52,204 nucleotides of DNA from NCBI GenBank assembly GCA_038869535.1, contig JAWCQY010000001.1, positions 1 through 52,204 on the forward strand, written 5' to 3'. Source of the DNA: Candidatus Pacearchaeota archaeon (GTDB taxonomy: Archaea; Nanobdellota; Nanobdellia; Pacearchaeales; GW2011-AR1). The position numbers were made by a program, and so were the translations under genes. This document shows positions 114 through 47,765 of this stretch, piece after piece (position 1 is the stretch's first letter; every line of letters starts with the position of its first letter). The notes under the pieces were generated by a model. That model saw nothing but the letters and a program-made list of their open reading frames with translations, searched no databases and was not told the DNA's origin.

Positions 114-1211
114 TTAACTTCTGATATAATGTTTTCCCATTTCGATATTCTGCATAAATTTCTGTTCTCTTTCTATTAGCGCTTTCAATATATTTTCTCT
201 GTCATTTCCTCCAAATGCATCAAGTCTTGATTTATTTTCTTTCTTAAATTTTCTTAGTTCACTTATATCATTTATGCATTCAATTGCTCTTATAATCTTT
301 TCAGGATTTTCCCAGTCTTCTGCAGCTAATATTACTTTTTCATTAACTATTTCTGCCTTTTCAATTTCCGAAGGAATGTCCCATTGAATTGACTTATTTT
401 CAGCCGATTGACCATTTTCTTTTGCTTCAATTCCTTTTGGAAAAGCATCATTTATACTGTGATATCCTTCTTCTATTCCTTTTAGTGTCCCGCTTATTAA
501 TAATATTTTATCAATATCCCAGCTGCTCGATTTGCCAAAATTTTTTTCGATCAATTCTTTGGCAACATTTAATCTCTCAGCTCTCTTAACTAACATATCC
601 CTTGCTTTTTCAATCCCGTTCTTCTTTATATACTCTTCTAATTTTTTGCGATACCCTTCTTTTGCTCTTCTGAGACCAGCTTCTATTACATAATTAGGCA
701 GTGCATTAAGTATTACATTCCTCATTGCTTTTGAAGTCCCTATCTGAAATACTATTTCATCATTTCTCTCTTTTTCATATATAGCATTGCCTTTCTTATT
801 TTTCAAAATCTTTTTCTTAAGTATATATGGTCTCGATAAATTGAAACCAGTTTCAAAATCAATAAAGTCCCCTATCAATACATATTTATCACCTAAATCA
901 AATGGTCTCACTTCTACTGCATTATTGCCCCAATTTCTTGCAAGTATTAACGCCCCGTTTATTCCAACACCTTCTATATACTTGTCCCCCTGCGGATATG
1001 AATAATAAAAATCTTCACCGCTTATTGCTGCCTCTTGTTCTACTCTGTTTATAATATCGGTTAATTCTCTTTTTTTAATTACCTGAACTGCAGTTTGATA
1101 TCTCGTCTTTGTCTGCACAAGTCCTTGAACCCTTAAAAGTTCAGAAGCATTTAATGAATCTTCTTTTATTTCTTCTGCTTTAATTTCCAGTGCTTCATTA
1201 TTATTGTTCAT
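114..1211 (-). CDS. putative single-strand annealing protein (RecT-like)
   Basis: 365 aa, ATG with GGAG RBS. Immediately downstream of a Cas4/RecB-like exonuclease gene (the usual phage exo + annealase pair). IGTSKAMRNVILNALP resembles the RecT C-terminal KTAIRRLxKxLP motif. Not verifiable without an HMM search. Confidence 0.5.
   Translation of the reverse strand: MNNNNEALEIKAEEIKEDSLNASELLRVQGLVQTKTRYQTAVQVIKKRELTDIINRVEQEAAISGEDFYYSYPQGDKYIEGVGINGALILARNWGNNAVEVRPFDLGDKYVLIGDFIDFETGFNLSRPYILKKKILKNKKGNAIYEKERNDEIVFQIGTSKAMRNVILNALPNYVIEAGLRRAKEGYRKKLEEYIKKNGIEKARDMLVKRAERLNVAKELIEKNFGKSSSWDIDKILLISGTLKGIEEGYHSINDAFPKGIEAKENGQSAENKSIQWDIPSEIEKAEIVNEKVILAAEDWENPEKIIRAIECINDISELRKFKKENKSRLDAFGGNDRENILKALIEREQKFMQNIEMGKHYIRS
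366..383 (+). repeat. palindromic element, half copy (TTCCGAAGGAATGTCCCA)
   Basis: 16/16 match to the left arm of the 63-mer (TTCCGAAGGAATGTCC); the trailing CA diverges. Encodes DIPSE in the RecT-like ORF. Confidence 0.6.
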
Positions 1212-1229
1212 TTTATTTCTCCTTTGGAA

Positions 1230-2006
1230 TTAATTTTTAACTGTCCCGCCGTATTTTCTTTCGCATTCTGCATAATATTTGCAGTAACGTTTTGTGCACA
1301 AAAAAGAATTCCTGTTAGGTATGAAAACTCCGTTCTTTATTGCATCTCCAACTGTTTGAAATATTCTTAAAAAATGTTCTTTGTCTATTTCAACTTTTAA
1401 ATGTCTTATTTCAGTTGTATCACGCTTTAAATAATCTATTCTTGCACCTTCGACTTTATGTCCCGCTGCTTCTTCTAATATTGCATAAGCACTTATCTGC
1501 CTTTGATAGCTGATTGGAATTTTGCCGTTAATTTCTTTTGATGTTGTTTTATGATCGATAATTTGATTGTCTGTATCATATAAATCAATTGTTCCTGCTA
1601 AACCATAATCATAATTCTTAAATTTTACTTTTATCTTTTGTTCAACTGCAGCAGGAATGATTCTCGGACTCACTTCCTTTTGATATTTCTCAATTAATTT
1701 AATCCCCTGATCTTTAATTAAACCGGGTTTCTCCTCCGCTAAATCTATTTTGTCTACATTTTCAAATTCTTTGTCAAATACTTCACTGAATATCTGCTTT
1801 GCTTCTTCAATTTCTAAATCTGTTTTTGTGATTATTTTATAAGCAAAATTTTCTTTCAGGGTTTGATGTATTGAAGTGCCGAATGCTAAATAAGATTTAT
1901 TAGGCACCGCCATTTTTTCAATCTCTTGAAAGTAATATTTTGCTCCGCATTCAAGATAAGTATTTATTCCTGTTGGTCTTAAATATGTAATTGCTTTTTC
2001 TTCCAA
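1230..2006 (-). CDS. PD-(D/E)XK exonuclease, Cas4/RecB-like with Cys cluster
   Basis: 258 aa, TTG start with GAGGG RBS. Nuclease core GTIDLYD...QIIDHKT. One N-terminal Cys (LECGAKY) plus a C-terminal C-x4-C-x5-C (CTKRYCKYYAEC), as in Cas4/AddB Fe-S nucleases. Confidence 0.7.
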   Translation of the reverse strand: MEEKAITYLRPTGINTYLECGAKYYFQEIEKMAVPNKSYLAFGTSIHQTLKENFAYKIITKTDLEIEEAKQIFSEVFDKEFENVDKIDLAEEKPGLIKDQGIKLIEKYQKEVSPRIIPAAVEQKIKVKFKNYDYGLAGTIDLYDTDNQIIDHKTTSKEINGKIPISYQRQISAYAILEEAAGHKVEGARIDYLKRDTTEIRHLKVEIDKEHFLRIFQTVGDAIKNGVFIPNRNSFLCTKRYCKYYAECERKYGGTVKN

Positions 2007-2023
2007 TTTTATCCCTCAATTAT

Positions 2024-2686
2024 CTAAACAACTGTTTCTTCAAATGTAAATTCCACACCGGGAATTGTTGACTTTGCTTCATAGTCATATTTCATTCGTT
2101 CTGCTCTAATCTTCTTTTCGTCTATCATCAAGTATTCTCTTGGTACTTTGCTTTCATCAATTACTCTAAATGTCTTTATACGTCTTGTTGTTACTTTTGA
2201 TGTATTAAGCTCAGATATTTTTTTTGTTTCGGGAATAATCTCAGGTATTATCGGCACTTCTTCTCTCCCTTCTTTAATTGCTCTTTCAAGTGCTTCTTCT
2301 TCAAGTTTCCTCCGTTCTTCTTCTGCTTTTCTTTTTGCTTCTGCTTCTGTCTTCTTCTTAAATTCAAGCACTTCTCTTTCAAGCCGCTTTAATTCATCTT
2401 CATAAAGCTCTGGTATTGACTTAAAGAATGCATCAACTTCTGCTTTTTTATCTATTAATGGCTGAACTGCTCTCTTTCTGAGATTTTCAATTTCTTTTGT
2501 TATCTTTTTATAATTAGCTATATAATTAGCTGCAATTGATACATCAGATGCTGTTATTACTGCTACATCTGAGCTTTCTGCAACTGCCTTCTCAATATTG
2601 CTTTTTAATTCAAGATATCCTTCGCTGTATTTAAATGCTGCAATTATATCAGGCAGATTTATCTCAACAGATTGCATTTCGAACAT
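2024..2686 (-). CDS. hypothetical early protein, coiled-coil
   Basis: 220 aa, ATG with GAGGGA RBS. Charged coiled-coil centre (KKTEAEAKRKAEEERRKLEEEALERA). Confidence 0.6.
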   Translation of the reverse strand: MFEMQSVEINLPDIIAAFKYSEGYLELKSNIEKAVAESSDVAVITASDVSIAANYIANYKKITKEIENLRKRAVQPLIDKKAEVDAFFKSIPELYEDELKRLEREVLEFKKKTEAEAKRKAEEERRKLEEEALERAIKEGREEVPIIPEIIPETKKISELNTSKVTTRRIKTFRVIDESKVPREYLMIDEKKIRAERMKYDYEAKSTIPGVEFTFEETVV

Positions 2687-2696
2687 ATTAATCCCT

Positions 2697-2963
2697 CTAA
2701 TTTAATTTTGTAAATAAATTTACTTTTTCAGCTGCATAAGAATTTCTTAATCGTTCAGATAATACTATAGATGTAATTATTAACCGCACTAATGCTCTTT
2801 CTTCTTCACAAAGAAGTTTATGATACTTTTCATACTCTTTTAGTCTTTTTCCGAAGGAATGTCCAAAAGGACTCCTTTTGGGAATCCATTCCTTCGGAAG
2901 GAGGATTCCCACTTCAATTATTGGTCTAATTTTAAAAAGCAAATTATGATTTGATGCTGTCAC
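2697..2963 (-). CDS. hypothetical small protein; 21 codons supplied by the palindromic element
   Basis: 88 aa, GTG start abutting the upstream stop. GILLPKEWIPKRSPFGHSFGK is encoded by repeat 2849-2911. May not be a genuine gene. Confidence 0.35.
   Translation of the reverse strand: MTASNHNLLFKIRPIIEVGILLPKEWIPKRSPFGHSFGKRLKEYEKYHKLLCEEERALVRLIITSIVLSERLRNSYAAEKVNLFTKLN
2849..2911 (+). repeat. palindromic element, full 63-nt copy
   Basis: TTCCGAAGGAATGTCCAAAAGGACTCCTTTTGGGAATCCATTCCTTCGGAAGGAGGATTCCCA. Confidence 0.95.
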
Positions 2964-3206
2964 TTACCCCCCTAATTTGTTGTATAAAAATTCAATGTAT
3001 TTAATTTGTGCATCGGTTAATTCAACATTCTTCATTATTATATTTTCTGCATCATTTATAAATCTTTCATGCCTGCCGTCAGTATCAAATAATCTTATTT
3101 CTTTTATATTCTTTTTTATATAATTCAGCTTGAACAAAATCGCTTTTTGCCTGGCATTTTTATTAAGCAAATCATAACCGCTCAGTTTTGTATTTGAATA
3201 ATCCAT
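2964..3206 (-). CDS. hypothetical early protein
   Basis: 80 aa, ATG, tightly packed in the co-oriented operon. Confidence 0.5.
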   Translation of the reverse strand: MDYSNTKLSGYDLLNKNARQKAILFKLNYIKKNIKEIRLFDTDGRHERFINDAENIIMKNVELTDAQIKYIEFLYNKLGG

Positions 3207-3575
3207 TTATTTCTCCATCTGCAGCACTTTTAAATAACTCAATTGTGTTCTTAAACTGTCTAATTGATGCGTAATCGTCCTGTTAATTCTTTCTGCTAAT
3301 TTCACAATCTTCCCTTCTAAAGCACATCGTGATTTTGCAAGATTTGTAATTACTGACGGAGATAACTGCTGCTCACTTAGTAATGCTTCCGTTTCGTCTG
3401 CATATTTTCTATCATATAAATATTGAGCTTCACTTAATAATACTGCACTCCTTGCAAGATATACATTTAAATTTGTTATCCTTTCATTTATCTCTTCACT
3501 GTTGTCTTTGTTATAATAGCATCCTGCAAAATCTATTATCTCTGATAATTCATTTTCAATTTCTTCAATCCTCAT
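3207..3575 (-). CDS. hypothetical early protein
   Basis: 122 aa, ATG. 4-nt overlap with the upstream ORF. Confidence 0.55.
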   Translation of the reverse strand: MRIEEIENELSEIIDFAGCYYNKDNSEEINERITNLNVYLARSAVLLSEAQYLYDRKYADETEALLSEQQLSPSVITNLAKSRCALEGKIVKLAERINRTITHQLDSLRTQLSYLKVLQMEK

Positions 3576-3880
3576 TTTAACAGCTCCTCATCATATATTA
3601 ATTCTTTAATATATTTTTCTAATCTCTGTCCCTTGCCGTTTCCTATCATATCCAGCAGTTCTTCAAGCATATTTTCTTTGTTATGCCAGGTGTCCATTAT
3701 TCCTTCTTTAATAGCTTCCCAAAATTCATCATCATCTAAACATTTATTAACAATATGATCTTTTGCAATTTTGTATGCTTCACTGAAAGTGAGTTCATTA
3801 ATTCTCTCTTTCCTGTCATCATAATAATCTTCAATAGTTTCGCCGTGTTCTTCCATCCATTTTTCAATTTCAATTCTCAT
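3572..3880 (-). CDS. hypothetical early protein (acidic)
   Basis: 102 aa, ATG with AGGAGGGG RBS. Confidence 0.6.
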   Translation of the reverse strand: MRIEIEKWMEEHGETIEDYYDDRKERINELTFSEAYKIAKDHIVNKCLDDDEFWEAIKEGIMDTWHNKENMLEELLDMIGNGKGQRLEKYIKELIYDEELLK

Positions 3881-5610: not shown

Positions 5611-6252
5611 ATGAATTGGCAAGAGCTTATTGAAACATTAATGAGGGAGTTTAGATTAAGTTCAATTGAGCTTGAGCAAAAGACAGGTGTATCAAATGCT
5701 GTTATTTCCCAATTAAGAACAGGTAAGACGAAAAAACCTAATCAATATACTATACGTAAAATTGAAAAAGGTCTCAATATTCGTATTGATGACTCTGATC
5801 CAGAAAATATAAAATATAAAAAAATTGAGATACCATTTGAGGGTGCAATTCCAGCTTCTGAATATCCTGTTTTAAGTGAAGTTTATGCAGGCGAGCCGGA
5901 GAAATTTGACGTGGAATTATATGACGAAAAAGAATATTTCATTTACAAATATCCGCATCATCGCTGTTTTGCTCTCAGAGTTAATGGCCGCAGCATGGAA
6001 ACAACTTTGCGTGATGGCGATGTTGTCCTGGTTGATATGGATTTAGAACCTGTAGCAGGTGATATTGTGGCTGTCAAACTCCGTAATGGCAATCAATACA
6101 TTAAACGATATTATCCAATTAATGAGTTTTTTATTAAACTGACTTCAGATAATCCAGATTATGATGTTCGTGTAATTGATACAAAAGATATTATTGCAAT
6201 TCATCCTGTTGTAGCAATTAATCTAAACATAAGAAATTCAAGAAAATTATAA
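5611..6252 (+). CDS. CI/LexA-like repressor (XRE HTH + S24 autopeptidase)
   Basis: 213 aa. N-terminal HTH IELEQKTGVSNAVISQLRTGK. C-terminal S24 signature VNGRSMETTLRDGDVVLVD ... QYIKRY (Ser/Lys dyad context). Confidence 0.85.
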   Translation: MNWQELIETLMREFRLSSIELEQKTGVSNAVISQLRTGKTKKPNQYTIRKIEKGLNIRIDDSDPENIKYKKIEIPFEGAIPASEYPVLSEVYAGEPEKFDVELYDEKEYFIYKYPHHRCFALRVNGRSMETTLRDGDVVLVDMDLEPVAGDIVAVKLRNGNQYIKRYYPINEFFIKLTSDNPDYDVRVIDTKDIIAIHPVVAINLNIRNSRKL

Positions 6253-10920: not shown

Positions 10921-11298
10921 TCATCTTGCGAGATATATTTCAAGTTTTTTCCTAATTGGTAAATTCCATGATATTTCTGGTTTTGCTTCATCTAATAGTA
11001 CTTTCCCTGGGATTATGTAATGTTTAATCTCATCCGTTCCAATTCCAATAACTAAATGAATCCTATACTCTAAATTTTGTTTCTTGCATAATCTTGCTTT
11101 TTCATATTCAGTATTAGTAAAATATCTAAATAAAACTCTGGTTAAATCTTTAGTTGTTGCTCCTTTAACTTCAATGAATAGTGTTGAATCTTCATTTTTA
11201 AAATCATAGCCAAGTTCTCCTTTAGTCTTAACTAATCTAACATTTTGCTTTCTATAATATTCCTTTACAAATTCTTCGGCTGCTTTTCCAGTATTCAT
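10921..11298 (-). CDS. restriction-endonuclease-like (PD-(D/E)XK, DUF3883/Mrr-type) small protein
   Basis: 125 aa, GGGAGGA RBS. GYDF-x9-FIEVKG gives a D...E-x-K core. Confidence 0.5.
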   Translation of the reverse strand: MNTGKAAEEFVKEYYRKQNVRLVKTKGELGYDFKNEDSTLFIEVKGATTKDLTRVLFRYFTNTEYEKARLCKKQNLEYRIHLVIGIGTDEIKHYIIPGKVLLDEAKPEISWNLPIRKKLEIYLAR

Positions 11299-11341: not shown

Positions 11342-11947
11342 TTAATAATACCTATGACTTGCTTCCCAATTTGACAATCTCATATAAAACTGTCCATAAA
11401 AAGTATTCCTTTCTTCAATGCTCATTGCAAGATCTCTGTCGTTTAAAAATGCTCTTATAAAATTAATAATACTTATTTCTGGAAAATATTCTCTAAAAAA
11501 ATTATTCCATGTTTCTGTATAAAAATTAACAAATTCATTTACATCTATTCCATTAAATCTTGTTACTTGTCTTTCATAAGGCACACTCAAAATTTTCTTG
11601 GGATTTTCATGATTAGGACGCATTCCTGGCCACCCAAATTTTGGATATTTCGTAAGTTCCCTGAATTCTAAATATTGGTCGTGATAATAAGTATGCATTA
11701 ACGAATCTGTTACAACAATCATAAATAAACAAAGAATAAAATAGTCAAGATTGTTTCTGTCAATATTTCTAATATCTCTTTCAATATTTTGCCAGTTTAT
11801 GCCCCCAAAAAACCTTGTATATTCATCAACACCATATAAATGCGGATCTCTAAAATAGTATTCTGGAAGTTCTTGATATTCTAATGTTTCAATATCATGA
11901 GGGAATTGATTAAGATAATAATCTTGAAACGGCATCACCCCCTCCAT
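11342..11947 (-). CDS. hypothetical protein
   Basis: 201-aa aromatic-rich ORF. No motif recognised. Confidence 0.5.
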   Translation of the reverse strand: MEGVMPFQDYYLNQFPHDIETLEYQELPEYYFRDPHLYGVDEYTRFFGGINWQNIERDIRNIDRNNLDYFILCLFMIVVTDSLMHTYYHDQYLEFRELTKYPKFGWPGMRPNHENPKKILSVPYERQVTRFNGIDVNEFVNFYTETWNNFFREYFPEISIINFIRAFLNDRDLAMSIEERNTFYGQFYMRLSNWEASHRYY

Positions 11948-12104
11948 TTATATAATAAATTTGCTTTACCCTCATTCATAAAACTTTACAATCATATTTA
12001 TTAACAAATTTGCAAATAATTTATTTTCTTTTCAATAATATTTTTTTGATGCTTTAATTAAAATCATTTTTTTATTTTACAAACGTTTAAAAATAATTTT
12101 ATCC

Positions 12105-13271
12105 ATGAAGGGCATCTACATCCAAAAAAATTCTCCTTATTATTGGCTTCGTTATTATGATAAATTAGAAACTGATCCTTCTCGTAAAAGAAAATCTGTA
12201 AATACAAAAATTCCTGTTACGGAAGCTGACCGCAAAAGATACGAGAAAGGCGAAAAACTTGTCGGCACTCAACAGCTTCGAAATTTGGTTCGTGAATTTA
12301 AAGCAGGACTTGCAGAAAGAGACCTGCAGGCTAAATCTGGTGTAAGATTAAAAAAACAATTGCTGCTTTCCGATGCATTAAAAGAATTTGCTGAAATAAG
12401 AACAATCCCCGGAATAAAAAAATTTCTTAAACAAAAGACTTTAGAAAATTATAATATTGCGGTAAACCATTTTATTAATGCCTGCGGTGATAAATATATT
12501 TATAAGTATAACGATAAAGATTATTATAAACTGCTCTTTTACTTTGAAAAAAAGAAATTATCAAAAAATTCCCGGTCTATTTATACCCGCACACTTCACT
12601 CACTCTGGAAATATTTTGTTGATAAAAAATATGTATCGAAAAACATAATAGAACCAATTGATTCGGAAGAGAAAGATCCAAATCCAATATTATTTGAAGA
12701 TATGTATACTATAATTCAATCATTTAAGGAAGACACAAAATATCCGCATCATTATTGGTTAATTTATTTTATGCTGCTTACTGGCTGCCGTCCTTCCAGT
12801 GCTATGGTCCAGATGAAAGAAGACATCGATTTCAAACGCAAACAAATTATTATAAGAAACATTAAAGCAGGCGAGTTAAAAGGAAAACCATATTATCGTT
12901 TTCCTCTTTATAAAGAATTAGAAAATCTTTTAATAGTAATGAATGTATCTCCTGGGGATAAGGGCAGATTATTTCCTATGTACAAAATAAATCCACGAAA
13001 TTATACTTATCCTTTAAGCTTCTGGGAAAGAAAAATTAATACACTTTACAATGAAGGCAAAATCGAAAAACGTTATACATTAAAACAAATTCGTTCAACT
13101 ACTGCCAGCTTTTTAATAAACATACTTAAAATGGATATTTTTACAGTAAAAAAATTGCTCGACCACGCAAATATTCAAATAACAGATAAAAATTACATTG
13201 ACTATAATGTTAATGTTGCAAGGAAAGATTTAGATAAGTTTACACTGAAGAATCTAAAAAAAGTGTTATAA
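12105..13271 (+). CDS. int: tyrosine recombinase / phage integrase
   Basis: 388 aa. LLTGCRPSS (Arg I), KQIRSTTASF, LLDHANIQITDKNYIDY (His + catalytic Tyr). attP lies directly downstream. Confidence 0.85.
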   Translation: MKGIYIQKNSPYYWLRYYDKLETDPSRKRKSVNTKIPVTEADRKRYEKGEKLVGTQQLRNLVREFKAGLAERDLQAKSGVRLKKQLLLSDALKEFAEIRTIPGIKKFLKQKTLENYNIAVNHFINACGDKYIYKYNDKDYYKLLFYFEKKKLSKNSRSIYTRTLHSLWKYFVDKKYVSKNIIEPIDSEEKDPNPILFEDMYTIIQSFKEDTKYPHHYWLIYFMLLTGCRPSSAMVQMKEDIDFKRKQIIIRNIKAGELKGKPYYRFPLYKELENLLIVMNVSPGDKGRLFPMYKINPRNYTYPLSFWERKINTLYNEGKIEKRYTLKQIRSTTASFLINILKMDIFTVKKLLDHANIQITDKNYIDYNVNVARKDLDKFTLKNLKKVL

Positions 13272-13283
13272 AAAGTGTTATAA
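13262..13283 (+). repeat. attP arm-type sites, 2 x AGTGTTATAA
   Basis: Direct copies at 13262-13271 and 13274-13283, overlapping the integrase stop. Confidence 0.55.
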
Positions 13284-13310
13284 TAATTTTTTTATATATT
13301 CCATTAAAAC

Positions 13311-13347
13311 TAAAAAAGCCCTGTAACTTATTTAATTACAAGGCTTT
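13311..13347 (-). terminator. intrinsic terminator just 3' of the tRNA-derived core
   Basis: Minus strand: AAAGCCTTGTAA-loop-TTACAGGGCTTT followed by TTTTTTA. Confidence 0.55.
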
Positions 13348-13354
13348 AGAATTG

Positions 13355-13396
13355 CGGGGCCGACGAGACTCGAACTCGCGACCTCCTGCGTGACAG
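13355..13396 (-). other. attP core = 3' half of tRNA-Asp(GTC); not a complete tRNA gene
   Basis: Minus strand reads CTGTCAC-GCAGG-AGGTC-GCGAG-TTCGAGT-CTCGT-CGGCCCC-G: anticodon loop, 3' anticodon stem, variable loop, T arm, 3' acceptor strand and discriminator. The preceding bases cannot form the 5' anticodon stem. Confidence 0.8.
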
Positions 13397-13476
13397 TAAG
13401 CTTAACCTTTGTTTTTCGCTTTTTTTCAAAGATTTTTCAATAAAAATTGCTCCTGCCTGTGCCCTTTTTTAAAAAA

Positions 13477-13496
13477 AGTGTTATAATAGTGTTATA
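13477..13496 (+). repeat. attP arm-type sites, AGTGTTATAA + AGTGTTATA
   Basis: Direct copies at 13477-13486 and 13488-13496, on the other side of the core. Confidence 0.55.
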
Positions 13497-13664
13497 TATA
13501 AATTTATTATACTATTCTTAAATATAGTAAAGTAATCATAACATAGTTAAATTCATCAATCTTTCCTCTGAAATCCTCTATTTGATTAAATTCTTCAATT
13601 CTTTTAAAAAAGCATTCTTTGTGGTATTGGCATATCAATCCCACAAAAAATTTATTGAAAAATT

Positions 13665-14096
13665 TTAATTTCCTCTTACAAATTTTTTTGGATCAACAAT
13701 AGGCAAATAAGCACCTTCCAAAAACGTGCCTTTTGTTTTTTCCGATAATATTCCTCTTGTGGTAGATATCGAAATACTTATTAATGTAGTTACAAAAATA
13801 TCTGGAAGATTAATTTCTTTATCATCTGATTTCTGTAATTTCTCTAATTCTTTTATTTCGTAACTAATCCTTGTTATTAATTCACATAATTTGTAATTAT
13901 CTTTTGATAATTCCACGTAAGTATCTACATTAATTATACTGTTCTTATCATCAATACTTAAACCTATTTTTATATCAAATTTTATCTCTTTTTCATCAAT
14001 ACTCGATGAATCTAATTTATTTTCTATAAAAAATTTAATTAAAGAGATTTTCTTAAGTCGAAATCCAATCTTCTCTGTTATCTTATCAGGCTGCAT
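13665..14096 (-). CDS. SecB-like chaperone (third gene of the TAC module)
   Basis: 143 aa. FRLKKISLIKFFIE / CELITRISYEI / TTRGILSEKTKGTFLEGAYLPIVDPKKF parallel E. coli SecB FQIQRIYTKDISFE / FLCEVQQ / [24 protein letters not shown]. 11-nt overlap with the antitoxin gene. Confidence 0.6.
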   Translation of the reverse strand: MQPDKITEKIGFRLKKISLIKFFIENKLDSSSIDEKEIKFDIKIGLSIDDKNSIINVDTYVELSKDNYKLCELITRISYEIKELEKLQKSDDKEINLPDIFVTTLISISISTTRGILSEKTKGTFLEGAYLPIVDPKKFVRGN

Positions 14097-14463
14097 CTTC
14101 TAATACATATTTGTTATCATCAACACTTATATTGCTCATTTCTTTATAAATATACACATACTTATAAATAATTTTTTCTTTATCTTCTAAATCATATTTT
14201 GTAAATATCAATTTTTCACCAAGCGCTTCTTCTATTTTAGCTATTGTATCAATCGTAAAATTATGACTCCCCGATAACCATTTACTAATTTCCGATTCTT
14301 TCTTATTCATCTTTTCTGCAAGTTCTTTTTGTCTCATGCCTTTCTTTTCTAATATATCTTCTATAGATGCTGCTATTCCCATAGAATGATCAATAAAATA
14401 TTTAAGATTATCTTCTGTTTTTTCTAAAAATTTTTTTACTTCATCTTTTACATTATTATTCAT
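14086..14463 (-). CDS. XRE-family HTH antitoxin (HigA-like) with aggregation-prone C-terminal tail
   Basis: 125 aa. HTH MRQKELAEKMNKKESEISKWLSGSHNFTIDTIAKIEEALG. C-terminal extension contains KIIYKYVYIYK. Confidence 0.65.
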   Translation of the reverse strand: MNNNVKDEVKKFLEKTEDNLKYFIDHSMGIAASIEDILEKKGMRQKELAEKMNKKESEISKWLSGSHNFTIDTIAKIEEALGEKLIFTKYDLEDKEKIIYKYVYIYKEMSNISVDDNKYVLEDAA

Positions 14464-14481
14464 TTTATACCTTCTTCTTTT

Positions 14482-15003
14482 TTATAAAATAATATTGTTA
14501 ACTTCTTCAGTATCAAACTCTAAATTCCCTTCTAATCCATTCTCATTAATTAAAATCTCTTTGTTCATAACACGTTCATCAATTAATTTGTCTAACTTCA
14601 TTAGAAAATTGCATATATCATTTAATTCTGGATTCTCAATCAATTTTTGTTTATTCTCATCTTTAATTCCTCCGCCGCCGATAATTATTGCTAAGTTTGA
14701 TAATTTTATACAATATAATCTTAATAATGGCAATTTCAATTCCTCATCCCTTTCATTAAGTATTCTGTAAACTCTGAAATTATGTGGTCTTTCCGGACTT
14801 TCTCTTTTAAATGAACCATCTCGTATCCCAAATTTCTTAACCATATTTTCTAACAATATGTCTATGGTTTTAATTCCAGATGGGTTAATATCTTTATGTG
14901 TGTAGACAAATTCTTCGTATTCATTGTATTCTTTTGAATTATACTTGATAGTATAAATAATACCTTTTTTGCCTTTTTTTACTTCAATTATCGAAAACTT
15001 CAC
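14482..15003 (-). CDS. RelE/HigB (Gp49-like) toxin-domain protein with N-terminal extension
   Basis: 173 aa, GTG start. LRLYCIKLSNLAIIIGGGGIKDENKQKLIENPEL matches the R-x-[FY]...hydrophobic-GG-x-K signature of Gp49/HigB toxins. Directly precedes the HTH gene. Confidence 0.45.
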   Translation of the reverse strand: MKFSIIEVKKGKKGIIYTIKYNSKEYNEYEEFVYTHKDINPSGIKTIDILLENMVKKFGIRDGSFKRESPERPHNFRVYRILNERDEELKLPLLRLYCIKLSNLAIIIGGGGIKDENKQKLIENPELNDICNFLMKLDKLIDERVMNKEILINENGLEGNLEFDTEEVNNIIL

Positions 15004-15108
15004 TTATAAGTTAAGTTTTTTAATTAATAATTGCAAATTATTTAGTAAAATAAAAATACTTTCTTAATATTCAAATTCATTTGTCATTAGGAAAATAAAT
15101 GTCATTAT

Positions 15109-40083: not shown

Positions 40084-41382
40084 TTATGGACCTGGCGGTG
40101 TCCATGATGGATTATTTGGTGAATATGTGGCTATTACAAGTGAACTTGTATTCCCTATGAATTCACTCGGTGCTAAGAATCCATCATGATCATACCTGTC
40201 TGCTCTTGTATAACCAATTACTGTATATGAACTTTCTCCTCTTACATTATCATAATCGGCAGTCCTGTTTTTAAAACCAAGTGGTACTGTATGACCGCAC
40301 AGTATTGCCGAAGCTCCAATATATAATGCAAGTTTACGATCTGATTGATGAATTGGATTCTCAAGCGGATTGGGATTTCCATAATTGATTATGCCTCTGT
40401 TTGAATCATATCCAGTATCGCCTGCTGTCCATACGCCCGGATTATTTATATCAACAAGAATTAATACACCTTCTACAAGATGAGCTTCGTAAGCCCCGGT
40501 AAATAATGCCGCATTAGTTCCCTCTTTTGTAATAAGTGCTACATGAAGTTTTTCAAATAATGGATCTTCAGCAAGCTGTGCCATTTGTGCATCATTAAGT
40601 ATTAATATGCCTTTTACCTGATATGGACCTGCAGTTGTTGGAACTATCATGTGTCTTGAACCATAAATTTGTGCATTTCTTATTACCTGCATAGTCATTT
40701 TATCGTCGCTGCCAAGATTATCCAATTGCGTCTTAATTGCATTTTCATAAGCCTGAGGATCTGAATCAAACGGCACTCTTCCATATCCTGCAACATAAAA
40801 GTTAGGGTGGCTTCGCTGCTTGATTACATCTCCAAATCCTCCTTCACTTTTCGGGGCAAGTATATTGTCAGAAAATCCCCTGTATGCAGCATCATAAGGT
40901 GCGTATGCCTGCCATCTTTGATTGTATGATATAAATTCATCTTTTAAATTATCCCATATTTGCATTAACAATTTTGGCGTCAATGCAAGTTCGCCCATCA
41001 ATCCATCCCTCGTTTTTACCGGTCTTCTTACTTGATTAATCAAACATTTATTATATACCCATGTAATATCTTCTTCTTTACCTTCTGCTTGATTGTCGCC
41101 ATATATTGGCTTGGCTCTCAACGGCAGTTTTATTGGGACATCAATTGAGTATCCTCCCATGTGATTCCAATCTGTCAATACTTCAATTGGCTTACCTGTT
41201 GGTCTTAAGGTTTTTGATTGCACAGCACCAAATGGAACACTTCTTGGATATCCATGTTCATCGGTCCCTCCTATATGACCAATCATTGGAGCCCATACTG
41301 GTATCTGATGCCATTGAGACTTTCTCATTTTTTGTGATAAAGCCTCACGATACATTTTCAAATCACTATTTATTATTCCCAT
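40084..41382 (-). CDS. major capsid protein
   Basis: About 432 aa. The ATG at 41382 with a GGAGG RBS is preferred over the track TTG at 41394. Follows the scaffold gene. Size and position are typical. Confidence 0.6.
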   Translation of the reverse strand: MGIINSDLKMYREALSQKMRKSQWHQIPVWAPMIGHIGGTDEHGYPRSVPFGAVQSKTLRPTGKPIEVLTDWNHMGGYSIDVPIKLPLRAKPIYGDNQAEGKEEDITWVYNKCLINQVRRPVKTRDGLMGELALTPKLLMQIWDNLKDEFISYNQRWQAYAPYDAAYRGFSDNILAPKSEGGFGDVIKQRSHPNFYVAGYGRVPFDSDPQAYENAIKTQLDNLGSDDKMTMQVIRNAQIYGSRHMIVPTTAGPYQVKGILILNDAQMAQLAEDPLFEKLHVALITKEGTNAALFTGAYEAHLVEGVLILVDINNPGVWTAGDTGYDSNRGIINYGNPNPLENPIHQSDRKLALYIGASAILCGHTVPLGFKNRTADYDNVRGESSYTVIGYTRADRYDHDGFLAPSEFIGNTSSLVIATYSPNNPSWTPPGP

Positions 41383-41406
41383 ATTTTCCTCCAAAATTTT
41401 TAAAAC

Positions 41407-43985: not shown

Positions 43986-44215
43986 TATTCTCTTATTATT
44001 TTTTTTATATCTTTTGGTATATTATTCTTGATATATTCAATTTTATTTTTCGTACGATATCTCACTATTATTTTTTTAATAAACCCTTTTAAATTATTTA
44101 TTACTTTAGCTGTATCTGACTTGATAATTAGAATAAACATTATTAACAATATAAAATGAAATAAATCTGAGAAAAAATATTCAATTAATTTATATATCAT
44201 TTCCTGTGTATTCAT
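43985..44215 (-). CDS. small membrane protein
   Basis: 76 aa with one hydrophobic helix. 4-nt overlap with the portal gene. Confidence 0.45.
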   Translation of the reverse strand: MNTQEMIYKLIEYFFSDLFHFILLIMFILIIKSDTAKVINNLKGFIKKIIVRYRTKNKIEYIKNNIPKDIKKIIRE

Positions 44216-46278
44216 ACTACACTGCCTGAAACATTTGACCGTGCTTCTGCTTTTATTTTTATTCTTTGTGCTTTTTCAAGATTATCAAGTTTTTTAGCTT
44301 TTATCTCTTCTGCCTTATCTTGTATATTTAATTGTGTGATTATATCTTGAAGTTTTCTCATAATTTCTGCACTCTGCAGCTGTGCTGGACCGGGTTGTTC
44401 CAATTTTCTCCATTTTTCCAATATTTTCTGCCCATTCGGAAATGCTCCAAGTTCTACTATATCTTCTAACAACATATCAGCTTTTTGCGGATTAACTGAT
44501 ATTACTGCATTAAATAAATCTATTAATTTCGAGTACTCAATTTCTTTCGCATTTGCTGAATATGGCGCATCTGATATTTCAATATCATATTCACCAATTG
44601 TTATGTCATTTTTTATTCTTTCTATTATTTTTCCTTCTTCAATTGCATATTCGGATTTATTAACTGCTATTTCTTTTATTTCATTTACTCCGGGTTCAGT
44701 AATTCTAATAATTCTTTGTGTTGTTATATAGTGCTGTATAAATTTAACTGCAAGTTCGCATACTGCTCTTGCTGAATTATTTACATTATTAAATATATAA
44801 CTGAAACTTCTGGTCTGCTGCTGTTCTTTTGCTATAAAATGTCTTCCGCTCGTCACATCACTTGAACGGCGTCCTCTGATTTCATCATCTGCATTGCTTA
44901 TTACTTTCATTATTTCTTGTGTTTCAACCGGATCCCTTATTAAATCAGGACTTATTGTTTGTCCCTCTTCTGGTTTTATTTGATTTATATACCCTGCTCT
45001 TACTCTCCTGAATGGTGCTATTCTTTCAGTACTCCAGTCTTCTTCATACCCTGCTATTGCATTTTCATCAACAATCCATCCTTTATTCGCATAACGTCCA
45101 AGTAACTCTAATTTTAATGATTGTGCTTTATTAAAATGTGCTTGTGGATCTTTTAAATCATCTATAATTGATTGTGCTTTTAATTGATCTGCATGATAAT
45201 CATAACAAAACTGCGGTATATAAACATAATATTTACTGTCAAAAGGATAAGGCTGTTCATTTACTTTAATTCGAAAAGCAGGTATAACCGTTGTTAAAAA
45301 TCTTCTATTATGAAGTTCTAATTTAGCTTCACCATTAATCTTATAATGCTCTTTTACTAAATTGATTTTTTCTGTATTGAATCTTATCCCATCATTTTCT
45401 CTCGTTAATTCAGTTATATCATACAATCTTTCATTTTCATCTCTGATTATCAATCTTCTTTCTGTTCTTTTTTCATGTAATTCAAGAACATCAAATTTAC
45501 CGCTTACAGGATCCCACCATTGCAAATAACTTTTATATAGATTATCATTAGTTGAACTAAAATTAACAGCTGTCTCATAAACTGCACTGAACAATGCTTT
45601 TAGTTTGTTGCTTATCCACTTGCTTCTTTTTTCATCCTGCTGAAAAAATATTTTAGCTTCATTAATGATTTCATCCTGCATTTCAATATCATTTAAGGCA
45701 TAACGGTTTAATATTTCTTCAAGTGTTAATGAATGTTTTCTAAATAAATAATTTGTATTGCTCCATAATTGGTCACAGTAATTCGGTTCAAATACAAATT
45801 CTCTCGGATCAACTGATTCAATTTTCAATTCACCTGAATTATCATTCTCATAACTCCAGCTTACCGAATATACTCCATACCTCGCTGTTATTGAATCAAG
45901 AAATACTTTTGTTCTGTAGTAATCAAACTTTGTATTATTAAGAAAATGCATCAGAATTTGATTAAATAATTCCGCCAGTTCATTATCACCATGTCCTTTC
46001 GGTTTTGCTATTACCTGTCTTCTATTTACAAGCTCAATTGCAATTATCACATTTAATATCGTTCTTATTAAATTATAACTGTTTGCAGGTCTTCTTTCTT
46101 CCTTCAATTTTTCTTTTACTTCTTTATCCCACTGTAATGCAGCAACTGTAAAATCATAATTCTTCGTCATTTCATTGTGCATTGGTTCAAATTGTGCATA
46201 TAAATTGTTATACAATCTCATCATATCATATATCGTATCATCATCTCTTAAATTGAATTTTCTCTTTGTATTAAACAT
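44212..46278 (-). CDS. portal protein
   Basis: 688 aa, directly downstream of terL, GGGAG RBS. EERRPANSYNLIRTILNVI resembles the portal N-terminal motif. Confidence 0.7.
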   Translation of the reverse strand: MFNTKRKFNLRDDDTIYDMMRLYNNLYAQFEPMHNEMTKNYDFTVAALQWDKEVKEKLKEERRPANSYNLIRTILNVIIAIELVNRRQVIAKPKGHGDNELAELFNQILMHFLNNTKFDYYRTKVFLDSITARYGVYSVSWSYENDNSGELKIESVDPREFVFEPNYCDQLWSNTNYLFRKHSLTLEEILNRYALNDIEMQDEIINEAKIFFQQDEKRSKWISNKLKALFSAVYETAVNFSSTNDNLYKSYLQWWDPVSGKFDVLELHEKRTERRLIIRDENERLYDITELTRENDGIRFNTEKINLVKEHYKINGEAKLELHNRRFLTTVIPAFRIKVNEQPYPFDSKYYVYIPQFCYDYHADQLKAQSIIDDLKDPQAHFNKAQSLKLELLGRYANKGWIVDENAIAGYEEDWSTERIAPFRRVRAGYINQIKPEEGQTISPDLIRDPVETQEIMKVISNADDEIRGRRSSDVTSGRHFIAKEQQQTRSFSYIFNNVNNSARAVCELAVKFIQHYITTQRIIRITEPGVNEIKEIAVNKSEYAIEEGKIIERIKNDITIGEYDIEISDAPYSANAKEIEYSKLIDLFNAVISVNPQKADMLLEDIVELGAFPNGQKILEKWRKLEQPGPAQLQSAEIMRKLQDIITQLNIQDKAEEIKAKKLDNLEKAQRIKIKAEARSNVSGSVV

Positions 46279-46280
46279 AT

Positions 46281-47765
46281 TTATACTCCCATAAAATCAT
46301 TAATTTGCTTTTTGTGCTTTTCTTTTAACTCTTTCAGCCATAATGGTTCATCTTCAATAGCTTTAATTTTCGGCTTTACTAATGTCATATAAAGATATTT
46401 GGCTGCATCATAGCAATGATCATTTTGCCCATCTGCTATGTCTTCTGGATCTTTTTCATCTGTCATTAACAATGGAAACGTATCAATAAAATGTTTGCAT
46501 CTTTCGTATACTTTTAATTTAGGCTGCTTAATAATTTCCCCATGTTCATTTACTTTGTAATCCAGAGCATTATACATTGCTTCATTGCATGCAACTCTAA
46601 AACTTCTATTGTTTAATCCTGCAGCACTTTTTGAAACTTTTATTAATTTAATTCCTGCTCTTAAATAATATGCTGCAGGAAATTCTTCTCTCGCAATATC
46701 AAATGCATCTGGATTCCACATATTAGTATCGCCTGCTATTGTAATATTCATTAAATCCCTCTCTTTCAAAAATTTTTTAAGATCATTTATCTTTGCCTCT
46801 CTTATTGCTCTCTCATGGTATAATTCATCAAACAAAATTACATTCCCATTGTAGTCTTTTGCACCAAGCATTACTGCTGTAATATTACCGTAATCTATGG
46901 CTCCCATTACAGACATATTTTTTATCTGCTGATAGCTTAAATAATCTTTTGGTTTAACTATATGAATATCTGGATTCCAGTTATCAAAAAATTGTCCTTC
47001 AAAAATGTCCCAATTTCCATAAAGATATTTCTGTTGCTCTTTATATGGTAACTGCCTTAACCTGTTTAATACTTCAGGATCTCGTTCAAGTAATATTTTA
47101 TTGTCAAATACAGTAGCTGTTATAAAACATATTCTGTCTGGATTGTAATCGGGATATTTTTCTTTGCTCGCATTTTTCTTAACAAAATAATTTCTTACTT
47201 CTGTATGTGCTTTGCCGCCTGGATTTGTTGCCGCAGCAAAGAATGGTATAAAATCATTTCTGCTTGCTTCTAATCTTAATCTTAAATTATAACTTAAATC
47301 GAATGGTATTGTAGTAAGCTCATCAATCATAATAAAATCGTAATTAGCAGATAAATATTGACTTAAATCATCTATTGTTGAACCATATCCAAATTCAAGT
47401 ATACTTCCATTAAAATAAGTAAATGTATGCCTCTGCTGATTATAAGTTCCTATCTCAATAGGAAGATCAAATTGGATAAATCTTAAATGTGTTCTTTCTA
47501 ATTCAGGAAATGATGATCTCAGTAATAATCCCTTTATACCCTGATATTGCAGACAATTCCTGTGTGCTTCCCATCTTAATGCCCACGATTTCCCTCCTTT
47601 TGCCGCCCCTCCATATAAGAACTCTCTATAACCATTCTCTGCTCTGTTTAATATTGCATCATGAAACTGCTTCTGTTTGTCCTGCGGCTTATAATATATT
47701 TTGCCGTTTATTTCTATTGAATTAAATGATAACATCAGCAGTATGCTAAGAATTATTTTTATCAT
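46281..47765 (-). CDS. terL: terminase large subunit
   Basis: 494 aa. Walker A YGGAAKGGKSW, Walker B DFIMIDELT. C-terminal nuclease-size domain. Confidence 0.85.
   Translation of the reverse strand: MIKIILSILLMLSFNSIEINGKIYYKPQDKQKQFHDAILNRAENGYREFLYGGAAKGGKSWALRWEAHRNCLQYQGIKGLLLRSSFPELERTHLRFIQFDLPIEIGTYNQQRHTFTYFNGSILEFGYGSTIDDLSQYLSANYDFIMIDELTTIPFDLSYNLRLRLEASRNDFIPFFAAATNPGGKAHTEVRNYFVKKNASKEKYPDYNPDRICFITATVFDNKILLERDPEVLNRLRQLPYKEQQKYLYGNWDIFEGQFFDNWNPDIHIVKPKDYLSYQQIKNMSVMGAIDYGNITAVMLGAKDYNGNVILFDELYHERAIREAKINDLKKFLKERDLMNITIAGDTNMWNPDAFDIAREEFPAAYYLRAGIKLIKVSKSAAGLNNRSFRVACNEAMYNALDYKVNEHGEIIKQPKLKVYERCKHFIDTFPLLMTDEKDPEDIADGQNDHCYDAAKYLYMTLVKPKIKAIEDEPLWLKELKEKHKKQINDFMGV

Follow-up and report, generated by a model that had tools for sequence, protein, structure and literature searches.

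In contig JAWCQY010000001.1 (GenBank assembly GCA_038869535.1, Candidatus Pacearchaeota archaeon), whose 52,204 nucleotides are referred to as the window, we identified an operon of three genes, orfA, orfB and orfC, that very likely encodes a type II toxin-antitoxin-chaperone (TAC) system, the 'moron' of a temperate phage whose host would be a thermophilic, Melioribacter-like member of the Ignavibacteriota. The operon is located between the 3' end of the late operon of the phage and attP/int, which is the extreme end of the prophage in a lysogen. Its genes had been listed in an initial annotation of the window, made from the sequence alone, and were found where it had placed them, all on the minus strand and with orfB and orfC overlapping by 11 nt. 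They also follow one another in the order that it had likened to the M. tuberculosis prototype, that is, toxin, antitoxin, chaperone. Such a system is a very diverged member of its class and not new in kind, and prophage-borne anti-phage TACs and their mechanism have already been published. The same annotation remarked that phages are seldom annotated with TAC modules; this no longer holds, with prophage HigBAC and CmdTAC already characterized as anti-phage systems. New here are the phylum and environment, a clade of SecB(TA) chaperones that is invisible to Pfam and counts thousands of members, the identity with the candidate system PDC-M64, an undescribed toxin family and a remnant prophage.

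The three genes are co-oriented and tightly spaced or overlapping, and this toxin-antitoxin-chaperone arrangement is kept in 14 further non-redundant loci. The closest copy was found in Melioribacter sp. Ez-97, with protein identities of 77% (orfA), 75% (orfB) and 59% (orfC). Compared with this copy, the ratio of nonsynonymous to synonymous substitution rates (dN/dS) is 0.12 for orfA, 0.09 for orfB and 0.19 for orfC at a dS of 1.1-1.7, which is near saturation of the synonymous sites. All three genes are under purifying selection. Chance open reading frames were rejected on the basis of these ratios (0.09-0.19) and of the recurrence of the trio in at least 11 non-redundant loci. The start of orfA is supported by its Melioribacter homolog, which has an identical GTG start codon and the same initial residues, MKFSII. 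In the alignment with Melioribacter, the orfA-proximal ~45 nt of the upstream region are conserved and comprise TTTG (15037-15034), a 20-nt spacer and TAACTTAT (15013-15006). This TTTG-N20-TAACTTAT arrangement resembles the published -33/-7 promoter consensus of Bacteroidota. The TAC operon probably has its own promoter, because the Melioribacter copy stands in a remnant without the late operon upstream. A scan for sigma-70 promoters gave only background levels and is uninformative for this phylum.

The strongest evidence for the chaperone comes from its predicted fold. The model of orfC calculated by AlphaFold2 (AF2) from a 113-sequence alignment (predicted local distance difference test (pLDDT) 86; predicted template modelling score (pTM) 0.80) has four beta-strands at residues 12-24, 39-49, 54-65 and 68-81, a long helix at 99-120 and a short one at 136-139, shortly after which the protein ends in ...KKFVRGN. 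In a Foldseek search of the Protein Data Bank (PDB), the top 13 matches were all either SecB (1fx3, 1ozb, 1qyn) or Rv1957 of M. tuberculosis bound to the peptide of its chaperone-addiction (ChAD) tail (5mtw), with a probability of 1.00, E values of 2e-5 to 3e-4 and template modelling (TM) scores of up to 0.62. They were followed by a few other entries of SecB-like fold and then by unrelated thioesterases at E>0.01. Thus, the SecB-fold similarity on which the initial annotation had made its proposal depend was found with a Foldseek probability of 1.0. Profile searches pointed in the same direction: the hidden Markov model (HMM) of the orfC family ranked E. coli SecB first among all PDB sequences (E=0.0057), and hhalign aligned the family with E. 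coli SecB at E=1.9e-4 (orfC 4-85, SecB 3-90). The likeness to SecB that had been noted by eye therefore stands, with the profiles covering the beta-sheet half only (orfC 3-85, SecB 2-90); the register suggested by eye for the C-terminal segment (RGTF..L.L.PV) could not be confirmed. Like housekeeping SecB of E. coli and H. influenzae (PF02556), orfC combines a four-stranded sheet with a long alpha1 and a short alpha2, shows a weak co-linear profile similarity over the sheet, and has its most conserved motif in the long helix. This helix, for which a conserved motif common to SecB and the chaperones of TACs has been described, contains the family's invariant residues S111, R114 and G115. Unlike housekeeping SecB, genes of the orfC family are not solitary, being operonic with an antitoxin gene in all loci, and orfC falls below the Pfam threshold; the Pfam SecB model was touched weakly by 3 of 113 family members (best E 0.0039). 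Taken together, model and fold search confirm orfC as a SecB-fold protein, SecB-like by fold and not an annotated member of PF02556. To our knowledge, Bacteroidota and Ignavibacteriota generally lack a housekeeping SecB.

Relatives of orfC are numerous: 6 were retrieved by a single-sequence search, 584 by a profile and 3,199 clusters at 50% identity by an exhaustive HMMER search. They are ~140-160 aa long, have no Pfam domain and derive mostly from metagenome-assembled genomes (MAGs) of Ignavibacteria and Bacteroidota. Scanning for loci with a narrow alignment gave 5 loci in genomes and 8 in metagenomes. All family counts of partners and tails given here are based on 15 non-redundant loci carrying an orfC-family gene. 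In each of these 15 loci, an HTH (helix-turn-helix) antitoxin gene ends no more than 60 nt upstream of the orfC-family gene. Thirteen of the antitoxins are detectably related to orfB, and two, both linked to HigB, are a different HTH antitoxin (one of them checked against Pfam). The toxin slot is more variable. It holds an orfA-like gene in 11 loci, a Gp49 toxin in one (L007; PF05973, 2.6e-7) and HigB_toxin in two (L004 and L010; PF09907, ~1e-20), and is empty in one (L003). Modular pairing with different toxins, including pairs without a toxin, has been described for SecB(TA)/TAC chaperones. Judged by these gene associations, the orfC family behaves like SecB(TA), in that it is associated in a modular way with different toxin-antitoxin (TA) pairs.

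Two of these settings differ from that of the window. In a Prolixibacteraceae MAG (L003, 2522-3420), an orfB-like antitoxin and an orfC-like chaperone are encoded without a recognisable toxin, and the upstream gene is lipoprotein-like. The antitoxin of this locus ends in -SC, not in Ala. Toxin-less 'AC' pairs of this kind have been noted before (Sala et al. 2013). In marine metagenome contigs and Balneolaceae (L004, L008 and L009; L010 and L012), the orfC-family chaperone is coupled to the canonical HigB_toxin (PF09907), and the antitoxin is a different, longer HTH protein with a tail ending in -TG or -AI. These loci may represent a ClpXP-independent sub-type, as reported for HigA of E. coli NT1F31.

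The antitoxin orfB carries two recognisable parts. The first is a DNA-binding domain of the HTH_3 family (PF01381, E=1.6e-12), with additional weak matches of the protein to HigA and HI1420 'antidote' models. The second is a 40-aa C-terminal tail that contains seven aromatic residues, an alternating Tyr/aliphatic, strand-like motif (YKYVYIY) and the end ...LEDAA. The HTH protein with an aromatic tail that had been predicted at this position was hence recovered. Tails of 40-94 aa are present in all 15 related antitoxins, and 12 of these proteins end in Ala (seven in AA, two in VA and three in another residue followed by Ala). A terminal Ala was found in none of 30 partner proteins, 15 encoded upstream and 15 chaperones. 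The ChAD of known TACs extends the antitoxin at its C-terminus, is prone to aggregation and inserts its aromatic residues into the client groove of SecB; these antitoxins end in a ClpXP degron, Val-Ala in M. tuberculosis HigA1 and LAA in CmdA. Judged by its sequence, orfB looks like a chaperone-addicted antitoxin with a ChAD-type tail and a ClpXP-type degron.

From its position in the operon and from the toxin swaps in sister loci, where the same slot holds Gp49 or HigB_toxin, we conclude that the product of orfA is very probably the toxin. In its AF2 model, an N-terminal hairpin is followed by two helices, four strands, a long helix (125-146) and a small C-terminal sheet, giving a predicted core order of beta-beta-alpha-alpha-beta4 before the long helix. 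Among PDB structures, the best Foldseek match was HigB1 (Rv1955), followed by HigB of S. pneumoniae, HigB2 of V. cholerae, HP0894 of H. pylori and Cami1. RelE-type toxins of this kind were the only compact matches with a low root-mean-square deviation (rmsd), all of them at E>=0.14 and a probability of <=0.63. G59, F65, R95, C98, G109 and K114 are invariant in the orfA family. For HigB(TAC), four strands and a long alpha3 have been described as typical of Gp49-like toxins, with the catalytic residues K95 in the beta4-alpha3 loop and R77 on the sheet. In the orfA model, the invariant R95 is located on the third core strand and the invariant K114 in the loop before the long helix; these two residues would be the counterparts of R77 and K95, respectively. 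The model thus shows the succession of elements of the RelE/BECR fold (two helices, an antiparallel sheet of four strands, a long C-terminal alpha3), but with fold-search scores below threshold. The Gp49-like peptide seen in the initial annotation (LRLYCIK...GGGGIKDENKQ) is indeed present, at residues 94-119 of 173 and not at the C-terminus, since a 55-aa extension lies beyond it.

A number of observations weigh against a TAC system carried by this phage. Most of them concern orfA, for which a Pfam run gave neither the expected Gp49/HigB match nor any other at E<=1, and NCBIfam gave none either. With six further members of its family, it had no match to Gp49 (PF05973) at E<=10, and none of its matches to toxin families is significant (Foldseek E>=0.14). 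A Foldseek search of the viral BFVD library with orfA returned nothing meaningful, and hmmsearch of its family profile against PDB sequences returned only noise. Comparison of the orfA family by hhalign with one Gp49 toxin (E=0.01) and with a 3-sequence Gp49 profile (E=0.036) was not significant. Of five AF2 models calculated for orfA, a single one was good (pLDDT 84.5). For orfC, the Pfam run likewise had no match at E<=1, including the SecB family PF02556 named in the initial annotation, below whose threshold it falls, and there was no NCBIfam match. Further points concern the phage. Scans of the viral contigs of IMG/VR with two alignments revealed no close relatives, and the int-TAC region matched none of the GenBank phages. 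Therefore, carriage of the orfC family by phages looks rare, and the phage copy may have been captured recently from a defence island of a host. The one metatranscriptome examined had no real coverage and gave no RNA evidence of expression in lysogens. A phage with a sensor for structural proteins must also avoid self-triggering by its own virion proteins. Finally, toxicity, chaperone dependence and defence are predicted by analogy only.

The lack of a significant match of orfA to toxin families, in sequence or structure, is also what speaks for a new toxin fold or activity on an antitoxin-chaperone chassis, in place of a RelE/Gp49-type RNase. The TAC chassis is known to accept HigB, MqsR, HicA and the ADP-ribosyltransferase (ART) CmdT, and the invariant Cys, the GGGG loop and the 55-aa C-terminal extension of orfA are unusual. 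We nevertheless regard this alternative as rather unlikely. The only compact, low-rmsd structures retrieved are toxins of the RelE superfamily with the TAC toxin HigB1 at their head, the order of secondary-structure elements matches that of Gp49-like toxins including the long alpha3, and orfB weakly resembles the antidotes of Gp49-type killers. In addition, hhalign places K66, R80 and R95 co-linear with a Gp49 toxin, although the alignment is confined to these residues and to the strands 'LRLYCIK...AIII' of orfA and 'LRVFCVM...TIVL' of Gp49. A search for additional Gp49 sequences by tblastn found none in the phage collection and only three in plasmids. Thus, orfA is probably a diverged RNase of the RelE fold; its membership in Gp49/HigB is not established.

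The closest parallel to the window operon is HigBAC of M. tuberculosis (HigB1 Rv1955, HigA1 Rv1956, Rv1957). Both share the order of toxin, HTH antitoxin and SecB-fold chaperone, and in both the antitoxin carries a C-terminal ChAD-type extension of ~40-46 aa with critical aromatic residues. The degron is of the aliphatic-Ala type throughout, with VA in M. tuberculosis and in the Melioribacter copy and AA in orfB. In the structure searches, Rv1957 ranked among the best matches of orfC, and Rv1955 headed those of orfA, albeit without significance. In contrast, orfC is only 8-12% identical to Rv1957 and lies under the Pfam SecB threshold, orfA is 50 aa longer than Rv1955 and has an N-terminal hairpin and a C-terminal mini-sheet, and the window copy is phage-borne and belongs to the phylum Ignavibacteriota/Bacteroidota. 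HigBAC (strain NT1F31) and CmdTAC (ECOR22 / O112ab:H26) of E. coli are TACs carried by prophages that defend by abortive infection, and they occupy a comparable position in the variable region of a temperate phage, a P2-like prophage in the case of CmdTAC. Their chaperones recognise aromatic patterns of the ChAD and are titrated by the major tail or capsid protein of the infecting phage, and CmdA, which ends in LAA, is degraded by ClpXP. Unlike these systems, the window operon gave no detectable sequence match to them: in PADLOC, orfA and orfC matched no model but PDC-M64 at E<=1. Moreover, the ChAD of E. coli HigA has 96 aa with four spaced aromatic residues, whereas orfB has 40 aa with one aromatic cluster, and orfA is not an ADP-ribosyltransferase.

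Based on these parallels, the TAC system could work as follows. The chaperone orfC, presumably a tetramer with the SecB fold seen in model and fold search, would bind the aromatic, strand-prone tail of orfB, as suggested by the analogy with M. tuberculosis HigBAC, E. coli HigBAC and CmdTAC. Binding would keep orfB soluble and hide its terminal Ala-Ala from ClpXP. Stabilised orfB would neutralise orfA and probably autoregulate the operon through its HTH domain. The toxin orfA itself would most likely be a diverged Gp49/HigB-type RelE-fold, ribosome-dependent mRNase, as far as the weak fold matches indicate. A superinfecting phage would flood the cell with unfolded capsid or tail protein competing for orfC, leading to the loss of orfB. 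Without orfB, orfA would shut down translation and the infection would abort, in analogy to the known systems. The same circuit would make the operon addictive.

A decayed prophage was found in Melioribacter sp. Ez-97 (NZ_JBPSEG010000002.1, region 700-3600), which seems to be an isolate in culture. Here, tRNA-Gly and tRNA-Val(tac) are followed by 215-nt repeats, a stretch of the integrase end, a stub of the giant gene that adjoins orfA in the window, the intact TAC operon and a further repeat copy. The 215-nt unit is repeated 3.3 times after tRNA-Val(tac) (767-1483), and each copy consists of a pseudo 3' half of tRNA-Val with an insertion of ~24 nt and the same hairpin as in the window. A stretch of ~250 nt matches the window hairpin and the 3' end of the integrase gene, and another ~250 nt, with broken frame, represent the 3' end of the giant gene. 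The right-hand tRNA-Val-like copy (3538-3592) is 93-98% identical to the left-hand ones. The tRNA-Asp core of the window was sought in this locus and is absent; the island uses tRNA-Val-like repeats. By its sequence, this region is a prophage remnant between att-like repeats that has lost essentially everything except the TAC operon, on which purifying selection still acts. The att-like copies in tandem point to repeated rounds of integration and excision at tRNA-Val.

Addictiveness of the TAC system would explain why the operon alone was retained in the decayed Ez-97 prophage, and the operon might serve mainly for addiction, that is, for post-segregational stabilisation of the prophage or island and not for abortive infection. 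The Ez-97 island has lost int, the giant gene and a phage body of ~50 kb, yet keeps the operon intact under purifying selection. Placed next to att, the operon would penalise its loss by imprecise excision, and TA modules classically stabilise mobile elements. Yet a useful defence gene would likewise persist in a remnant, and the chromosomal homologs are found beside or inside restriction-modification (RM) and conflict systems and not on obvious mobile elements. Neighbours of these chromosomal copies are type I RM systems (L023, L026, L027), a type IIG RM system (L019) and an ABC-3C conflict system (L016), and such contexts are those of defence islands, to judge from the genes present. PADLOC derived its family from embedding in defence systems, and all TACs tested so far for phage defence did show it. 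We therefore consider addiction as the main role to be doubtful. Defence is favoured by the chromosomal copies embedded among RM genes, and either role by the remnant; the two roles are not mutually exclusive and both readings are compatible. That orfC is instead a general SecB-like chaperone for folding or assembly of the phage, with orfA and orfB an unrelated regulator pair and no functional TAC, is highly improbable: the operon does directly follow the late/morphogenesis operon, no terminator being predicted in between, and a Clostridium phage has been noted to carry a solitary SecB, but the orfC family is antitoxin-linked in 15/15 loci, nearly all of them chromosomal and without phage structural genes, three loci carry textbook Gp49/HigB toxins, orfC overlaps orfB, and the Melioribacter remnant keeps the trio without virion genes. 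A housekeeping or virion-assembly chaperone was accordingly rejected, since the family is invariably linked to an antitoxin.

The operon also matches an anonymous defence candidate. All component HMMs of PDC-M64 in PADLOC were matched by the adjacent orfA, orfB and orfC with E values of 5e-18 to 8e-32, namely PDC-M64B (2.5e-23) and M64A (2.5e-12) by orfA and PDC-M64C by orfB (8.1e-32) and orfC (5.1e-18). For orfB, weak matches to other HTH-protein models were obtained as well. In PHROGs, orfA and orfC had only weak matches, to families of unknown function (E 0.02-0.09). The 145 members of the PDC set are candidates, none of them tested, that were selected for their embedding in RM, BREX or DISARM systems, and homologs of the orfC family occur in RM-embedded settings of the sort used for this nomination. 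The source paper of the PDC set does not mention SecB, chaperones or TAC, and in our literature search we found no paper mentioning PDC-M64 and none linking SecB-like TAC chaperones to Bacteroidota. On balance, the evidence leans towards PDC-M64 being a very large, unannotated TAC clade in Bacteroidota/Ignavibacteriota, with a SecB-fold chaperone invisible to Pfam (at least 3,199 clusters at 50% identity) and an undescribed toxin family. The orfA-like toxin could be a new branch of the RelE fold with an invariant Cys and a GGGG-K loop, or a new toxin altogether. If this holds for PDC-M64, the phage copy shows that the cassette moves between defence islands and temperate phages and outlives the prophage.

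TAC systems have only recently been understood as anti-phage immunity in which the chaperone doubles as a sensor of viral structural proteins. They have so far been characterized in Mycobacterium and E. coli; with the window locus and its relatives, the class would come to include thermophilic Ignavibacteriota and Bacteroidota. In addition, PDC-M64 would gain a mechanistic annotation, and orfA-like proteins would add a new toxin family. The short and simple ChAD of orfB, with one aromatic cluster and Ala-Ala, would be convenient for the study of chaperone addiction, and the Melioribacter remnant shows, as a clean case from nature, how a defence/addiction cassette can outlast the complete decay of its prophage.

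The window belongs to a temperate phage by its gene content, which includes a large terminase (TerL), a portal protein, a major capsid protein, a CI repressor and an integrase (Table 1), as well as an exonuclease. The CI-like repressor indicates an SOS-inducible lysogeny switch. The phage occurs in hot-spring metagenomes, which is consistent with a thermophilic, Melioribacter-like Ignavibacteriota host. The TAC operon begins 105 nt past the last late gene and is convergent with int. This last late gene, directly upstream of orfA, encodes the giant protein of 2,822 aa and resembles polyvalent head-morphogenesis/MuF-type phage proteins; no terminator was predicted between it and orfA.

Temperate phage genes and an att core formed by the 3' half of tRNA-Asp place the TAC module at the prophage end beside attP, in agreement with the initial annotation. 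The core lies 269 nt downstream of the orfC stop codon and 83 nt from that of int. When contigs of four hot-spring runs were mapped onto the junction, a jump in depth showed in the region 13321-13437, from ~10x to 400-730x over about 13350-13396, and dozens of unrelated contigs match 13354-13396 only and then run into a tRNA D-arm. Joined to the consensus of the bacterial contigs, and with three 5' G residues assumed, the core folds as tRNA-Asp(gtc). We assigned 13354-13396 as the att core because the shared 43 nt complete tRNA-Asp(GTC). An integrase gene adjoining an att core in which the 3' end portion of a tRNA gene is duplicated is the arrangement expected of a temperate phage with a tRNA-targeting tyrosine integrase. 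ARAGORN called no tRNA in the window alone, and Rfam did not call the half-tRNA, giving only weak tmRNA and HPnc0260 T-arm-like matches there. The hairpin between the core and int is likely a bidirectional terminator between int and the convergent TAC operon. After integration, the TAC operon would be the outermost gene cluster of the prophage. A sibling contig ending at 13367 (L014) was rejected as an att junction, being a plain contig end without divergent sequence. No terminal repeats were found in the window, so that completeness and circularity of the phage genome are not established.

Table 1. Features of the TAC operon and of the surrounding phage genome in the window
Feature	Position	Strand	Remarks
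orfA, putative toxin	15003-14482	-	173 aa, GTG start
orfB, HTH antitoxin	14463-14086	-	125 aa, starts 18 nt after orfA
HTH_3 DNA-binding domain of orfB	14209..14364	-	residues 34-85
ChAD-like C-terminal tail of orfB	14089..14208	-	residues 86-125: IFTKYDLEDKEKIIYKYVYIYKEMSNISVDDNKYVLEDAA
orfC, SecB-fold chaperone	14096-13665	-	143 aa, overlaps orfB by 11 nt
Intergenic region upstream of orfA	15004..15108	-	candidate own promoter/operator
attP core, 43 nt	13354..13396	-	3' half of tRNA-Asp(GTC), anticodon loop to acceptor end
Hairpin, 14-bp stem	13315..13347	.	between att core and int stop
Tyrosine integrase	12105..13271	+	Phage_integrase PF00589 5e-11; phrog_1 1e-28; convergent with TAC operon
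CI/S24-type repressor	5611-6252	+	phrog_4, 4e-32; S24/UmuD-type self-cleaving domain
MuF_C/ParB_N polyvalent protein, 2,822 aa	15109-23577	-	MuF_C and weak ParB_N Pfam matches
Major head protein	40084-41394		window phage gene
Portal	44212-46278		window phage gene
Large terminase	46281-47765		window phage gene

Two further observations were made around int. Single contigs of runs X1 and X3 join 12045 to 14949 and 12075 to 14188 and seem to skip the int-attP-TAC region. These joints are probably spurious, with a shorter side of 20-22 nt in AT-rich sequence, or could mark variants without the cassette. Beyond the integrase gene, two small genes are encoded on the minus strand, one (11342-11947) without matches and one (10921-11298) matching NOV_C (PF13020), which we take to be a nuclease-like domain. 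By their position on the flank of int, both might be additional accessory or defence cargo.

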